A stretch of DNA of 64,000 nt from Candidatus Bathyarchaeia archaeon (GTDB taxonomy: Archaea > Thermoproteota > Bathyarchaeia > 40CM-2-53-6). Shown here one piece after another: positions 56,909-61,864 of this stretch. The stretch covers positions 1 to 64,000 of the forward strand of contig JBEKSC010000007.1 in the NCBI GenBank assembly GCA_049517415.1, in the 5' to 3' direction. Numbering within the stretch: the first letter of the stretch is position 1; each line of letters begins with the position of its first letter. The notes beneath the pieces were generated by a model, which ran no database searches, was not told the DNA's origin, and saw nothing but the letters and a program-made list of their open reading frames with translations. The translations under genes were made by a program, and so were the position numbers.

Positions 56909-57559
56909 TCATGGCTGTCTTTCTAAGCTTACTGGACTCTTGCCAAAGTAATTGTACAACCAAATGGGCAGAACAGTAAGATCCAACATGAGCATTAAGA
57001 CCTCCATGACGACGCCCGCTTCAGCCTGCTCAGGTGCGGGGTACATGGAGTATATGTGGATAGGAGTGAGGAGAAGGATAGCGCCGTAGAGGCCCATCGC
57101 CTTTCCGAGGACTATTGGCGCAAGTTGCCGCGCTCTTTTCGTCAACCCCCTTGACCCCCCAAATACCAGACCGCCTACGACGAATAATGTGACATGCATT
57201 TCAAAGTGAACCATTACGCTCAGCACCGCTGCGTCGAAATTGGCTGGAAGATACCAGTAGGCTGTCAAGAGAGAAGCCGTAACGAAGGCGGCAATGCCCC
57301 ATTTGTTGAATACGGAATTCGCCGTCAGAAGATGGCGGTAGATTTCGGCGACTTTCCTATGAAATGCGGACGCTACAAAGACCAGCGAATCGACACCGTA
57401 CGAAATAAGAAAACCTGTAGCGATGTAAAGAAAACCATGAGCCATATTCAAGGTCAAAGTTGACTCCAAATATGCGCCAAGTGGCGTAATCATAGAAAGA
57501 ATAATCACGGACGCCGTGCCGATCGCAAGAACGCCTCTAAGAAGCCACGGCATCAACAC
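56909..57559 (-). CDS. DUF1404-like membrane protein (possible oxidase assembly factor); the frame stays open upstream
   Basis: M.H, YWYLP..FDAAV....H..MH, KAMG..G..L, Y..YP..EQ..AG; divergent from the cox operon. Confidence 0.65.
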   Translation of the reverse strand: MLMPWLLRGVLAIGTASVIILSMITPLGAYLESTLTLNMAHGFLYIATGFLISYGVDSLVFVASAFHRKVAEIYRHLLTANSVFNKWGIAAFVTASLLTAYWYLPANFDAAVLSVMVHFEMHVTLFVVGGLVFGGSRGLTKRARQLAPIVLGKAMGLYGAILLLTPIHIYSMYPAPEQAEAGVVMEVLMLMLDLTVLPIWLYNYFGKSPVSLERQP

Positions 57560-57765: not shown

Positions 57766-57773
57766 TGTAACAT
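57766..57773 (+). repeat. Left 8-bp target-site duplication TGTAACAT
   Basis: Identical to 61087-61094, directly abutting the TIRs. Confidence 0.9.
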
Positions 57774-58004
57774 GGTTCTGTTAATTCTTAGGGACTCTAT
57801 GCCTCCTGTTAAGTGTCGGGACTTAGCTTGCAGCTTGGATAATCGTCAACCATTGGTGTCAAGTCCTTGTTTGGTCGCCTAGGCTGTCACCGTTTGGTGG
57901 CTTGGTGGCTAATAATCGGTGGTGTTACCTCTGCGGTTGAAAGGCTCTAACGGGAGACTTTTTCCAGCTGTTTTGCCCGTTGTTACCTTTCGGTTGAGAG
58001 AGCA

Positions 58005-58709
58005 TTAGTATTGGTTTTTCAAGTCGACCTTTATTGCGTTTTGGATAGACTCGATAAGTCGAACTGCTTCTCTCTCTAGACTAGCCAATTTCTTTTGGTC
58101 TTCGTCTTTAGAGGCATGTTCAAGCATGTTAGCGAAGAATTCACCCAGCGTTACCTCTTCCATTGGAAACTCTTTCTTTAGAGTCGGAAAAACTGCCTCT
58201 ATACGGTTCTTCAATCGGGGAACTATCTTGCCCTCAAAAATGCACAAGGCAAGGTCATTAGCAAAATTCTTGGCGCCCTCATTGTTGAAAGCAAAAGGAG
58301 TTGAAAACGATTGGTTTAGTTTATTGAGGATTGCTTCCACGTATTTTGGATAAAGTTCTGTCTTTATCGAACTGAGAAGTCGCAACCTCTGATCGTAGAG
58401 TTCATGTATTTGCGTTTCGAGGTTTTCAGGAACCAAGTAAAGCAAATGTGCGGAACGGATTTGGGAGTATTCTATAATATCGAAGAAGCCGTACGCTGAT
58501 AGGTTCGTTTTCAGATTGCGTAATTCGTCATACAGAGGCGCGTAGACTTTCTCCCGTCTTTCATCCGCTTTTTGGGCCTTCCAAGAATATCGAGCCGTAT
58601 ACCACGACGCAAGAAAAGTGAGAAGTGAGGTTACAACAATGAAGACAAAAGTCCCTAAATTGTTGATAAACCAATGCGCTACGTCATTCAGAAGTTCTGT
58701 TATGTCCAT
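58005..58709 (-). CDS. Transposon passenger: hypothetical protein with N-terminal TM helix
   Basis: AT-rich 234-aa ORF right after the transposase; TM then 'ERREKVYAPLY.EL'. Confidence 0.75.
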   Translation of the reverse strand: MDITELLNDVAHWFINNLGTFVFIVVTSLLTFLASWYTARYSWKAQKADERREKVYAPLYDELRNLKTNLSAYGFFDIIEYSQIRSAHLLYLVPENLETQIHELYDQRLRLLSSIKTELYPKYVEAILNKLNQSFSTPFAFNNEGAKNFANDLALCIFEGKIVPRLKNRIEAVFPTLKKEFPMEEVTLGEFFANMLEHASKDEDQKKLASLEREAVRLIESIQNAIKVDLKNQY

Positions 58710-58727
58710 ACAATTAGATGAGGCTCT

Positions 58728-59882
58728 CTATCTATTTTCGGCTTTTGGAGGTTCTCCGCGTTTTCGGTCTGCCGCGTTTTGAATCAGTGTTAGCCATTTA
58801 TCTTCTCCCTCAACTGAAATGCCTACTTTGTCGGCTGGTGTTTGTCCATCCAGTCCCATGTGGGGGCGTATGTAGTTGTGGTAGATTTGGTAGCCTTTCA
58901 GTAGTGGGCTGTCTGCTTTCTTGACTCCTCGAACAATCTTCTCGCGGTCGCGGATTTCTCCGTTGAAGCGTTCCATCTTGTTGTTATTGTGCTGATTCTT
59001 GAATGCGATATTCCGAATGTGAACTGTCCTATCACCCGTATCACGAGTCCAATATTCTTTCGTGTACGCTTCTTGGTAGGTGCGCAACCCGTCCGTAATG
59101 AGTGTCTTAGGTTTCTTCCCTGCTACCACTTTAGCGGCTCGGAATAGTTGGCGTGCATCGTGAGCGTATTTCGTGTCTGCGACCTCTCGCGCTATCCAGA
59201 ACCGAGTTTCATCGTCTAGGACAGCAAACAGGTACTTCATGTCGCCTTTGACCTTGAGGTATAGTTCGTCTGCTCGCCAAGTATCGCTGACTTGCGGGGT
59301 GATTTTTGAGAGGTATGAATCCATGAGTTTCACGTATTTTCCAATCCATTTGTAAACAGTGACATGGCTAACTGCTATCCCTTGCAACTTCAAGAATTTC
59401 TGAACATTCCGTAGTGATTCGCCTGAGAAGTATAGTTGCATGGCTGTTGTTACGGCCTGTGGGTTCGCTTGCAACTTTTCGAAGCCGTAGTTCTGGGTGA
59501 ATCTTTTCTCACAGTTCTTGCATAGGAACCGTTGTAGGTCGCCATATCGGTTGTGGCGTAGTCCTCTCTTGATTAGTGCCTTGGAACCGCAGTTGGGGCA
59601 AACGGTTAGGCTGATATTTGGAATTACTACGTTTTCCTTTACTGTGTTTCTTACGGCGAGTGAAAATTCAACTGCCCATATGTGTTTGCATTTGACTTGG
59701 CGATATGTGAAGTCGGGGCAGAGGCATATCCACTCTGCGCCGAACTTGCTGCTGCGGGTTATCTTATAGAATCCTTTGCCAGATTGTGAGGCTACTTTGT
59801 AGAGGCAGTCATCAAAGCGTAGAACTTGGCTGTCTTTCTCGGCAATCGCTTTACCTCGCAACTGGCGTGTTTGTAAGGCCAT
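58728..59882 (-). CDS. DDE transposase (IS6-like) with N-terminal SWIM finger and IS1-like Zn ribbon
   Basis: C.CPDF....CKH SWIM; CPNCGS...QRFLCKNC; HTH SLRNVQ..VSHVTVYKW; WRADE / ITDG / NKMERFN catalytic triad. Confidence 0.92.
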   Translation of the reverse strand: MALQTRQLRGKAIAEKDSQVLRFDDCLYKVASQSGKGFYKITRSSKFGAEWICLCPDFTYRQVKCKHIWAVEFSLAVRNTVKENVVIPNISLTVCPNCGSKALIKRGLRHNRYGDLQRFLCKNCEKRFTQNYGFEKLQANPQAVTTAMQLYFSGESLRNVQKFLKLQGIAVSHVTVYKWIGKYVKLMDSYLSKITPQVSDTWRADELYLKVKGDMKYLFAVLDDETRFWIAREVADTKYAHDARQLFRAAKVVAGKKPKTLITDGLRTYQEAYTKEYWTRDTGDRTVHIRNIAFKNQHNNNKMERFNGEIRDREKIVRGVKKADSPLLKGYQIYHNYIRPHMGLDGQTPADKVGISVEGEDKWLTLIQNAADRKRGEPPKAENR

Positions 59883-59998
59883 GTGATATCTACCGTTCTA
59901 TCTATCATCCATATGTGATATAAGTATCTATCGTCCGGCCGCCGTTCCAGCACCGTTCAAACGGTAGATTTATACAGGTCGAAGTTAACGGTCTAGCC

Positions 59999-60211
59999 AT
60001 GAGCTTAGACAGCACCGTCGGAGTAGCCAAGATAGGAACGAAGTCACTCAGGGCAACCGTTCCAGAAGGAATCGTTGCCTACTTGAACATACAAGCTGGC
60101 GACAAACTCCTATGGACAATGGAAAACAACGAAACCGGAGAAAGAATCGCCATAGTCCGAAAAGCAAAGACCGCGCCATCATTTGAGAAGCCGTTCAAGA
60201 AACACAAGTGA
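59999..60211 (+). CDS. AbrB/MazE-type DNA-binding protein
   Basis: SLRATVP.GIV..L.I..GD.L.W. Confidence 0.85.
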   Translation: MSLDSTVGVAKIGTKSLRATVPEGIVAYLNIQAGDKLLWTMENNETGERIAIVRKAKTAPSFEKPFKKHK

Positions 60212-60810
60212 AAACAATGTCTGAAGAAGAATGGCGTGACCTGTTACCTTCCGAAGAAGAACGTAAACTCTTAGACCCAATAGCCGAAAAGTACACCACT
60301 CAGAAACTGAGAATCCTTGACGAAGAGGAATCACGTACCCGATTAGGCAAACTTGCGGATTTCTTATCAGGTCCGAGTTTAGACGAGTTACCATTTAATT
60401 TTGCCAACGCCGTGAAAGAATATCTCCGTCTCAACCATGTTGTCAAGATGCGAGCACGAACCTATGAGCAATATCCAAAAAACTCGGACTCAATAGAAGC
60501 GATAGAAGCGAAGAATTCGGTGATGCAATCCGTACTCAGTCTCCGCCAAGTAACTACTGAATTTAACAGGCTATACTATCAAGCCCTTGCGGAGCATAGA
60601 GTGGATGAAGGCTTTGGCAAAGAGTTGGAAGACCTTCGAGCCACAAAGATAGAACTTACAGCGCAAAACGAAGTATTACAGAAGAAATTGCGAGATGCTC
60701 AACATTGGACCAGACAACTTGAGACTTACATAAGAGCGCATAATGGAAATCCAGACGAAGCACGCGATTTGCCGGGTGATGTTGAAGAGGGTGGTGAGCC
60801 GCATGAGTGA
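60208..60810 (+). CDS. Transposon passenger: coiled-coil hypothetical protein
   Basis: Overlaps the AbrB stop; heptad-like C-terminal region. Confidence 0.7.
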   Translation: MKTMSEEEWRDLLPSEEERKLLDPIAEKYTTQKLRILDEEESRTRLGKLADFLSGPSLDELPFNFANAVKEYLRLNHVVKMRARTYEQYPKNSDSIEAIEAKNSVMQSVLSLRQVTTEFNRLYYQALAEHRVDEGFGKELEDLRATKIELTAQNEVLQKKLRDAQHWTRQLETYIRAHNGNPDEARDLPGDVEEGGEPHE

Positions 60811-61261
60811 TGTCGAAAATGTTGGAAGGTGCCCTCGGTGTCGAGCATTCTTAACCTCTGAACAAGTAGGCACTCATAAGTGTCATATTCCAATCAGAGG
60901 CACAGCAGAAATTTACCTTGACTGGATTGCTGACGGATTCATCGACGAAAATGAGGATTTTGTTAGAATGGCAACGAGCATAAAGGGAATCCTATACAGC
61001 GTCATTTTGTGCAAGCATAACCCACCGCACAGCCTTGAGTCCCGACTGTTAACACACGTAAAAAGTCCCGAAGACAGAACAGAACCTGTAACATCCAAAC
61101 ATAAATATCAGTACAAGAGATTTGCACAGCTCAAAATTACCGTGGTAATCTGTATTGCAATCATTCGTGCTACGTGTCGCGCCCAAACTGTCTGCCTTAG
61201 TCGGACTGTGCCTCTTCTACTTCTCGATACCATTCGCTTTCGCTCAGTCCTCGCAAGTTGA
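60803..61261 (+). CDS. Transposon passenger: Zn-finger protein whose frame runs out through the right TIR
   Basis: ATG 60803; CPRC...H.C; no stop before the TIR (..DRTEP at 61086). Confidence 0.6.
   Translation: MSDVENVGRCPRCRAFLTSEQVGTHKCHIPIRGTAEIYLDWIADGFIDENEDFVRMATSIKGILYSVILCKHNPPHSLESRLLTHVKSPEDRTEPVTSKHKYQYKRFAQLKITVVICIAIIRATCRAQTVCLSRTVPLLLLDTIRFRSVLAS
61087..61094 (+). repeat. Right 8-bp target-site duplication TGTAACAT
   Basis: Identical to 57766-57773. Confidence 0.9.
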
Positions 61262-61388
61262 GACGGAAAGGGCGCTGTTTAACCAGATTCTGATAATAGG
61301 AATAATCGTAGGCATAGTAGTATTTGGCCTTCTGTTCTACGCCATTATCAGGTTCAGAGAGAAACCGCATCAGGCTGGTGAGAAGTAA
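61155..61388 (+). CDS. Cytochrome c oxidase subunit II N-terminal part (signal + first TM helix)
   Basis: Signal ending AFA|Q, then LF..ILIIGIIVGIVVFGLLFYAIIRFR, as in helix I of CoxB. Confidence 0.7.
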   Translation: MQSFVLRVAPKLSALVGLCLFYFSIPFAFAQSSQVETERALFNQILIIGIIVGIVVFGLLFYAIIRFREKPHQAGEK

Positions 61389-61864
61389 TGGTTTCGAAAA
61401 CACATGCCATAGAAATTCTCTCAATCATTATCACTTCAGCGGTCCTAGCCTACATAGGTGTGATCGCCGGTATTTCGCTGATAGCAGTGGACACTCCCCC
61501 TCAGCAGGAAGGAGCACTTCACGTGAAGGTTATCGCGCGCCAATTCTATTGGACGTTTCAATATGCGCCCGGTAGCTCGATCACCTTCCCCAACGGAACA
61601 ACCATTGAATACCCCAATGGAACCTCCATACAGAACACACTCTATGTTAAGGCCGGACAAGTAGTAGACTTAGAGATAGTTTCTGACGATGTTGCACACA
61701 GCTTCTTCATCCCGCAGTTGGGAGTCCACATTGATGCCATCCCGGGACACGATAACCATTACTGGCTGAGAGCAGACAGCCCTGGGCAGTACCTTATTGA
61801 ATGTACCCAGTTTTGTGGCACGGGACACTACACCATGATAGGCCAACTAGTCGCAGTTGCATAA
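61388..61864 (+). CDS. coxB: Cytochrome c oxidase subunit II (second TM helix + CuA domain)
   Basis: VIARQFYWTFQY, DVAHSFFIPQLG..DAIPG, CTQFCGTGHYTM CuA motif. Confidence 0.93.
   Translation: MVSKTHAIEILSIIITSAVLAYIGVIAGISLIAVDTPPQQEGALHVKVIARQFYWTFQYAPGSSITFPNGTTIEYPNGTSIQNTLYVKAGQVVDLEIVSDDVAHSFFIPQLGVHIDAIPGHDNHYWLRADSPGQYLIECTQFCGTGHYTMIGQLVAVA

Follow-up and report, generated by a model that had tools for sequence, protein, structure and literature searches.

What kind of mobile element stands directly upstream of the cytochrome c oxidase genes of a Bathyarchaeia archaeon, and what placed it there? The element, which is 3.3 kb in size, lies in the first 64,000 nucleotides of contig JBEKSC010000007.1 (assembly GCA_049517415.1); this whole stretch is referred to as the window. 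It belongs to a large archaeal family that is apparently undescribed. As judged from the sequences compared, the family, the fixed register of its insertions to a TATA-like box and the code by which its transposases would read their ends are all well supported. The best explanation overall, to which we give a probability of about 0.6, is an IS6-like replicative unit transposon aimed at promoters bound by TATA-binding protein (TBP), and possibly by transcription factor B (TFB). Relative to a preliminary description of the locus, the target rule, the tandem arrays, the defence-rich cargo, the end code and the relic ends inside the element are newly recognised.

The element and its empty site

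The element spans positions 57774–61086 (3,313 bp, in forward-strand coordinates of the window). Its inverted GGTTCTGTT tips, located at 57774 and 61086, are directly flanked by an exact 8-bp target-site duplication, TGTAACAT, whose copies occupy 57766–57773 and 61087–61094 (both plus strand); inverted repeats and a perfect duplication were also what the preliminary description had reported. Each end contains two TGTT..GGGAC units. The working end on the downstream side of the transposase gene (57774–57824, plus strand) has a GGTTC tip and is of the GGGAC class; its outer site (57779–57797) has a half-site spacer of 4 nt, and its inner site (57807–57824) one of 3 nt. The other working end (61037–61086, minus strand) lies upstream of the transposase and regulator genes, and runs from the tip at 61086 through an outer site at 61081–61063 to an inner site at 61054–61037. 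The GC content within the element is 43–47%, compared to ~50% for the window. The genes were found as first described, except for one open-ended zinc-finger frame discussed below. The element is confirmed as a genuine 3.3-kb transposon with cargo.

The right flank was searched against 41 related genomes; 16 matched, and three of the matches reached the start of the flank. In two genomes of the same genus, G014 (flank 93% identical) and G004 (89%), the left and right flanks are joined through a single copy of the target, with similar promoter-like sequence behind it, so that the empty site anticipated from the duplication is indeed present in relatives. The claim that the element was inserted recently holds in a relative sense only: no empty-site joint was seen in the contigs of four peat metagenomes, which lose rare variants and whose runs are possibly the source of the window's DNA. 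No RNA dataset was listed as carrying the sequence of the left junction.

Two cargo-bearing elements of the complete genome G098, 100% identical over 2,826 bp and 4,026 bp, are each present at two sites. Owing to these identical copies and to the empty sites, everything from tip to tip, with the cargo, is shown to insert as a unit. Three of the four G098 copies have no matching duplication; by analogy with IS26, as reviewed in the covered part of PMC7986276, this is consistent with a replicative transposition after which adjacent DNA was rearranged. An IS26-type reciprocal swap of flanks between the duplicates was rejected, as the flanks do not match that pattern.

A family of elements with two-site ends and variable cargo

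Relatives of the element were collected from genomes (the best 80 of 207, giving 79 loci) and from metagenomes (the best 80 of 569, giving 78 loci, or 77 once a locus matching the window exactly had been set aside). Tips in inverted orientation, bordered by an exact duplication of 8 bp, were found at 52 of the 79 genome loci and 35 of the 77 metagenome loci, that is, at 87 loci among 156 beyond the window; many of the unbounded metagenome loci lie on short contigs, and the search required a duplication of 8 bp. Duplications of 9 bp are present in L021, L056, L264 and L280. The elements are 2,031–9,197 bp in size, with a median of 3,318 bp (n = 87, after three repeats were dropped and the three elements of the window's genome added). 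Their hosts are labelled Bathyarchaeia, Nitrososphaeria, Euryarchaeota, methanogens and, in one case, an Asgard archaeon. Two contigs that carry archaeal-type elements, L010 and L012, are filed under bacteria; because of these elements, and of a TFB-like gene beside L010, they are probably mis-binned.

The two-site build reaches a score of at least 12 in 79% of the 110 ends compared across the family and in 0.35% of 2,000 random genome positions; the conserved ends comprise ~50 bp. The distance from site to site is 27–29, 36–39 or 46–49 bp in 105 of the 110 ends, values that differ by roughly a turn of the helix. The spacer of the inner site is one base shorter in 102. Two non-autonomous elements of 353–354 bp (G000 C4:109415–109767 and C44:3426–3779) have similar interiors and different end classes, which suggests that ends may be exchanged on one element body. 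One solo end (G000 C18:6424) is almost identical to the window's left end, and no transposase or partner end was found near it. Another lineage, L267–L274 in genome G148, is multi-copy and cargo-free; its members are 1.7–1.8 kb in size, with GATTCTCC tips, 8-bp duplications and a SWIM-bearing transposase of 467–468 amino acids (aa).

The only constant genes are the transposase and a small divergent open reading frame (ORF), which was picked by eye in 48 of 52 elements. With Pfam, 13 of the 48 small ORFs match AbrB/MazE, 10 ribbon-helix-helix, two DUF families and one a Zn ribbon; 22 have no match. The preliminary description had given the element a divergent AbrB regulator of its own: the small divergent gene is conserved, but its slot is often filled by a ribbon-helix-helix protein rather than AbrB. 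Bipartite ends, 8-bp duplications, a small divergent regulator and variable cargo, all proposed as marks of the homologues, are what the bounded loci display. A conserved helper gene such as an IstB-like ATPase or a resolvase was not found; the other ORF clusters each cover at most 6 of 55 elements.

Of 118 cargo ORFs of at least 100 aa, 79 have no Pfam match. Restriction-modification genes occur in 10 of 52 elements (one of them GmrSD), and eight further elements have matches to KwaB, TIR, NYN, PIN, PemK or PDC-M19A, bringing the defence-related total, as a raw count, to 18 of 52. A stand-alone proteasome-subunit-like gene is present in six of the 52 (L001, L008, L022, L045, L051 and L071), and in L001 and L022 a PDC-M19A-like ORF adjoins it. 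One bounded element carries a full two-repeat TBP gene beside a restriction-modification pair (L011:2549–3106). Genes resembling tRNAs were called within the bounded elements of L021 (7089–7164), L025 (9144–9222) and L040 (8856–8950).

Insertion in register with a TATA-like box

In the window, the right copy of the duplication is followed by the predicted core promoter of the host, which is intact (61095–61107, plus strand): an A-rich spacer of 5 nt resembling a B recognition element (BRE; 61095–61099), then a TATA-like box (61100–61107). The box matches the TATA pattern at 8 of 8 positions and faces the cytochrome c oxidase genes. The target gene cox2 (61155–61864, plus strand; Pfam COX2_TM and COX2) is split into a membrane-part ORF (61155–61388) and a periplasmic-part ORF (61388–61864) with a one-base overlap, and a cox1-like ORF comes next.

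This order, duplication, five bases, box and gene, is the usual one in the family. The pattern scored was an 8-position TATA box beginning 5 bases outward from the outermost duplication on one side. In the discovery set, 18 of 55 sites are perfect and 39 score at least 7/8 at offset 5; among two-sided sites the numbers are 14 and 26 of 39, compared to 1.1% and 7.9% in nearby DNA. Counted by offset over 93 sides, 18 perfect boxes begin at offset 5; offset 3 has 7 and offset 7 has 6, which reflect the 2-bp period of TATA, and all others have 0–3. As the pattern and offset had been chosen after the discovery data were seen, both were fixed before the hold-out test. In the hold-out set (33 sites after removal of two repeats; L121 and L122 represent a single element and count as misses), 22 sites score at least 7/8 versus 5.7% of controls, and six are perfect versus 0.8%. 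When each target gene is counted once, 46 of 69 sites match.

An ORF of at least 100 aa starts 18–60 nt past the box, in the same orientation, at 24 of the 45 sites whose flank is long enough, compared to 8 of 32 on the other side. The orientation of the element relative to the target is free (13 versus 11). Between duplication and box there is an A-rich BRE-like signal, with A at 25/39 and 27/39. Several promoters were used by different elements with different duplications; we take these to be the promoters of the thermosome (six loci), RadA (five) and TFB (three) genes. Further targets, as assigned by their N-termini, are presumably genes of ribosomal proteins and a proteasome subunit. A diverged family member (G000 C6:71066–75668) stands directly upstream of a TBP gene; genome G000 has at least four TBP and at least four TFB genes.

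Elements also share sites: later arrivals use the 8 bp already duplicated, and the elements line up head to tail. Among 24 pairs of a right end with the next left end, 18 are separated by exactly 8 bp, and such neighbours differ in sequence, often in end class. The window's genome has tandem arrays of this kind on C14 and C23; on C14, two neighbours have duplications offset by 2 bp. Ends nested 57–110 bp inside other ends occur as well, two of them in the window element. At 62 of 90 sites there is no neighbouring end.

Two other kinds of target were rejected. There is no fixed target 8-mer, the duplications having only a weak pyrimidine...purine bias; and of 10 tRNA calls, one lies 60 bp from an end, two lie inside elements and the rest are more than 1 kb away. 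For an unrelated IS family as a comparison, no DDE_Tnp_1 match was found in the window's genome. Just past the TATA box, a TTAC-N5-GTAA palindrome is present at L006, L043, L050, L058 and L081 and at G000 C14, C23, C6:8128 and C3:149281; it is a candidate repressor site of a stress regulon. The RadA promoters bear a different palindrome.

The transposase and the recognition of its ends

The transposase (58728–59882, minus strand) is 384 residues in length; it contains a SWIM domain (residues 1–88), a C4 Zn ribbon (95–130), a helix-turn-helix (HTH; 141–191), an RNase H core and a conserved C-terminal helix. The SWIM and IS1-like Zn modules of the preliminary description both exceed their cut-offs (Pfam SWIM, 20.7 bits versus 19.6; IS1/IS1595-type Zn ribbon NF050000, 31.3 versus 28), as does DDE_Tnp_IS240 (52.6 versus 27). 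The best model is NCBIfam IS6 (118.1 bits, below the cut-off of 125), with NF033587 covering residues 134–337. The catalytic residues D205, D264 and E304 are invariant across 105 sequences. In the predicted structure (mean predicted local distance difference test, pLDDT, 83), the core is an RNase H fold of the integrase type, which aligns with a retroviral integrase core over 140 residues (Z 15.1, root-mean-square deviation, rmsd, 2.7), and the HTH helices are formed by residues 141–152, 157–166 and 173–191. Folded alone, the N-terminal domain reaches a pLDDT of 89. In fold comparisons it comes closest to ZSWIM8 (Z 6.2, rmsd 3.3, 77 aligned), followed by Shu1:Shu2 (Z 4.2); both agree with a SWIM domain in this predicted model and are uninformative on function. 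The domain has no PDB sequence match and no Foldseek match.

Among 7,726 candidate proteins, 5,474 are homologues. No plasmid record gave a match covering 80% of the query; the best is of the clostridial ISCpe7 type, with ~30% identity over residues 95–362. In a 30-row tree, the SWIM-bearing archaeal proteins form one branch (SH-like approximate likelihood ratio test, SH-aLRT, 93), with two SWIM-less proteins nested within it; the branch sits beside ISCpe7, apart from IS1216 and a short archaeal IS6 protein. This is a quick tree with long branches, few outgroups and only two rows of the clade VII type.

Mutual information between the bases of the end sites and the columns of the transposase was calculated for 86 elements. 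All 16 residue–base pairs with z above 4 fall within the Zn ribbon or the HTH; the maximum z is 2.8 over the 83 SWIM columns and 3.7 over the 175 core columns. The first half-site tracks residues 172–178: elements with Q174 have C or A as fourth base (83/86), those with R174 have G there (85/86), and M, V or R at 178 is paired with C at the sixth base (85/86). The second half-site tracks residues 104, 106, 118 and 127, with R118 going with G (85/86) and H, R, K or A at 106 with C (82/86). On a tree of the core only, the end classes are scattered, with 18 and 27 changes. Of the independent pairs on this tree, those for residue 178 go in the same direction in 8 of 8 cases (p 0.008); the other five tests gave four or five pairs in the same direction and never the opposite, too few for p 0.05. 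It is very likely, as far as covariation can tell, that the recognition helix of the HTH (172–178) reads the first half-site and the hairpin of the Zn ribbon (104, 106, 118 and 127) the second. With such a read-out, end specificity would shift in small steps, and many lineages could share one genome.

Proposed mechanism and alternative explanations

We propose that a transposase oligomer assembles on the two phased sites of each end, and that TBP, with or without TFB, positions this transpososome at strong promoters, for which the chances seem somewhat better than even. The contact would most likely be made by SWIM, a candidate because it is an added domain that does not covary with the ends. 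Insertion would take place just upstream of the BRE and TATA box, sparing the core promoter and the gene; since the cue lies on one side and survives insertion, it would be available to later elements. By analogy with IS26, transposition is probably replicative. The small divergent protein most likely represses the divergent promoters, and cargo may be gained as relatives insert into or beside each other, the inner ends decaying. In its full form, with a transposase that docks on TBP/TFB via SWIM and builds expandable defence islands upstream of the strongest housekeeping promoters, while a two-domain code allows dozens of end specificities to exist together and to pile up at one site, the proposal is tentative, a little short of an even chance.

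Several points weigh against this explanation. At offset 5, 27 of 90 sites score below 7, including the C3 element of the window's genome (4/8), and duplication-bounded elements in AT-rich complete genomes often score 5–6. The cargo-free, SWIM-bearing G148 lineage scores 4, 7, 6, 7, 6 and 6, and two SWIM-less bounded relatives score 6 and 7 (two elements only; chance pairs from a generic inverted-repeat finder in AT-rich loci were left uncounted); with scores so mixed, SWIM is neither shown sufficient nor necessary. The SWIM fold is also present, fused to bacterial IS5-type transposases and Rad52-like proteins, and bacteria have no TBP. With a gap of 5 bp, one of the cuts falls within the BRE and could be obstructed by bound TFB. 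The residue classes of the end code were set after the data had been seen. A predicted complex of TBP, the TFB core and transposase residues 1–90 scored 0.23 (mark 0.32), which speaks neither for nor against the contact. By itself, the register does not distinguish between a TBP tether and direct reading of the DNA.

The latter is the main rival, possible in our view though doubtful: the transposase itself would read a TATA-like sequence or bendability 5–13 bp from the cut, perhaps via SWIM, with no host protein. It accounts no less well for the fixed register and for the arrays, and is in keeping with SWIM folds on bacterial transposases; and because the bias of the duplications is weak, one-sided read-out of some kind is needed. 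However, the repeated independent use of a few promoters suggests that occupancy matters, even if selection against harmful insertions could mimic part of it, and the A-rich BRE-like signal between duplication and box also counts against this rival. Another rival is that insertion is loosely random in open AT-rich intergenic DNA, with survivors upstream of promoters left after the others were purged. All observed sites are survivors, and ~30% of sites have no good box at offset 5; yet selection gives no cause for a peak at a single-base offset that is repeated in the hold-out, and the exact re-use of an 8-mer by different elements is unexpected; this reading is very improbable.

We regard as very improbable that incoming elements target the tip of a resident relative, as IS26 does, the link to promoters being inherited from founders. 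The 8-bp spacing of end pairs, the nested ends and the C14 neighbours with duplications 2 bp apart all speak for it, and tip targeting may explain the nested relic ends. The targeted reaction of IS26 is not known to make a new duplication. Most sites, moreover, are solo, and solo sites show the register, that of the window included; the window's empty site holds no end. The sources covered describe the IS26 reaction as conservative. Guidance by TBP-bound promoters, as set out above, is the explanation that we retain.

Other genes, relic ends and the host locus

Passenger 1 (58005–58709, minus strand) encodes a near-orphan of 234 aa with an N-terminal hydrophobic segment; it has no match in Pfam, NCBIfam or PADLOC, two homologues, and only nameless atlas neighbours. 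The 70-aa regulator of the AbrB/MazE fold (59999–60211, plus strand) occupies the conserved slot of the family, divergent from the transposase. Its Pfam match to MazE_antitoxin (E 0.009) is below the cut-off; it clusters with family F1, several members of which match that model. The divergent promoter region between the two genes (59883–59998) contains four ACCGTT-type hexamers, at 59892, 59952, 59960 and 59987, the middle two forming a palindrome, and is a candidate operator of the small regulator. Passenger 2 (60208–60810, plus strand), a near-orphan of ~200 aa, has no Pfam, NCBIfam or PADLOC match and three homologues besides itself. Passenger 3 (60803–61261, plus strand) is a Cys/His-rich ORF with weak Zn-ribbon matches only (E 0.045–0.07).

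The preliminary description had counted four passengers (a transmembrane protein, AbrB, a coiled-coil and a Zn finger), all with intact ORFs. The AbrB gene is part of the conserved core rather than cargo. The Zn-finger frame that starts at 60803 has no stop inside the element and extends through the right end into host DNA, to 61261; because it crosses the end, this passenger is not established as intact. No passenger function received a name from the Pfam, NCBIfam, PADLOC, homologue and atlas searches.

Two relic ends lie beside the left working end. Relic end 1 (57852–57898, plus strand), of the CGTTTGG class, has a decayed tip and a shortened inner site. It was found by eye, was not called by the position weight matrix scan, and shares a stretch of 19 bases with one of the ends of the L006 array. 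Relic end 2 (57918–57998, plus strand), of the CGGTTGA class, does match the position weight matrix and corresponds to the tip of the L058 element; one metagenome contig departs from the window at 57917 into an L058-type flank. The residues of the transposase fit the outer ends of the window element, not the relic ends. Since the relic ends match L006 and L058, which have other specificities, the element is, judging from these matches, a patchwork, in which the 234-aa passenger adjoins the ends of other lineages.

On the side of the element away from cox2, a Caa3_CtaG/DUF1404-like gene is located at 56909–57559. The insertion is surrounded by an aerobic terminal oxidase cluster, which is matched in 15 of 22 same-genus genomes. 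Insertion site C5 of the window's genome is the site used in L002, whose genome is labelled Bathyarchaeota; because of this common site and of the sources of the matching metagenomes (peat, wetland and soil), the host is probably a peat-dwelling member of the Bathyarchaeia.

Comparison with known systems

Like the strict IS6/IS26 group (IS26, IS257, IS1216), the window element has the first nine bases of the terminal inverted repeat consensus, the 8-bp duplication, and an H-HTH placed N-terminal to a DDE triad in an RNase H fold, with NCBIfam IS6 as best model. Different from that group, it lacks G10 (position 10 is A and C) and the E-DH--K signature after the catalytic E (ERFNGEIRDREK here, EQDHRPVK in IS1216), and its ends comprise ~50 bp with two sites, compared to a 14-bp consensus. 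Strict members are ~0.8 kb with one ORF of 220–250 aa; the window element has 3,313 bp and its transposase 384 aa. To carry cargo, IS26 depends on a copy at either side, whereas the window element holds it between one pair of ends. Because E-DH--K is absent, the element, although it works like IS6, is outside the strict family definition of PMC6807381.

The nearest catalogued relative, at ~30% identity, is the ISCpe7 group, which is clade VII of Harmer and Hall 2019 (PMC6807381) and clade h of Varani 2021 (PMC7986276) in the covered parts of both. It shares the order of Zn ribbon, HTH, DDE and RPH..TP tail; its N-terminal extension is a CxxC zinc finger, and the Zn profile of our family scores 22 bits on ISCpe7. 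The group is a sister branch (SH-aLRT 92–94, not starred), the window transposase standing on a branch separate from the clade VII rows, with the extra SWIM domain and complementary GG tips. As described in the parts covered, ISCpe7 elements have no SWIM, encode 340–350 aa in 1.2–1.3 kb with one gene, and have tips that are rarely complementary; no regulator, cargo or promoter register is described in those sections. Clade VIII/i (ISTet2, ISHahy6, ISHco2), known here by description only and in part, has a further ~100-aa N-terminal extension and a signal peptide. The only passenger-carrying IS6 member named in the covered part of PMC7986276 is ISDsp3, which like the window element is IS6-like with a passenger gene; compared by that partial description only, it is bacterial, 1,456 bp in size and without an intact Zn finger. 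In transporter IS (tIS) elements, too, passengers lie between one pair of IS ends and move as a unit.

Among prokaryotic DDE elements, insertion at a set spacing ahead of the promoter is known from TnGBS, ISLre2 and ISKra4, which insert 15–17 bp before the −35 box and for which contact with the initiation complex was proposed (PMC3942029, part covered). Those elements are Mutator-like, whereas the window transposase scores 21 bits on the IS256 model (cut-off 150); theirs are sigma-A promoters, mostly a fixed orientation and circular intermediates, and those of the present family TATA boxes and both orientations. The integrase of Ty3 is placed by TBP and a TFIIB-like factor (TFIIIB), and the gene is spared (PMC8632968, part covered; PDB 7q5b). 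Ty3 is an RNA element that inserts 2–3 bp upstream of the start site via C-terminal domains, compared to a DNA transposon upstream of BRE and TATA box, whose contact with TBP we only infer.

Tn7-like transposons reportedly have defence-rich cargo, as this family does. Casposons form arrays by re-use of one site, as described in the covered part of PMC6563490. Compared to both, the present family has one transposase, no separate targeting gene among its conserved ORFs, and many target genes instead of one att site.

That the family is poorly described, as the preliminary account supposed, agrees with the open-access literature searched (ISfinder and TnCentral being outside its scope), which yielded no account of the family and none of archaeal insertions in register with a TATA box. 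The covered parts of the IS6 reviews (PMC6807381, PMC7986276) contain no archaeal member of this build, and those of the thaumarchaeal (PMC6563490) and Asgard mobile-element papers do not describe the family.

Biological significance

In the part covered of a 2019 thaumarchaeal survey (PMC6563490), passenger-carrying composite transposons are reported as undetected in archaea. The present family, found in archaea, moves restriction-modification and other defence genes. For the IS6 family, few biochemical data exist according to the covered part of PMC7986276; the end code points to the residues with which end reading by an IS6-like transposase can be examined. Insertion guided by promoters has been published for Ty3 and for the Mutator-like elements of bacteria, and was not found for archaea in the literature searched; the family offers, for this reason, a direct way to ask if integration guided by TBP/TFB is older than the eukaryotes. 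Being small, a transposase that places 2–9 kb beside strong promoters and leaves them unbroken may become a tool for archaeal genetics. If the proposal is true in its full form, the family would represent, for prokaryotic DNA transposons, what Ty3/TFIIIB targeting is for a retrotransposon, and its transposase would be a natural safe-harbour integrase whose end specificity is legible from six residues.

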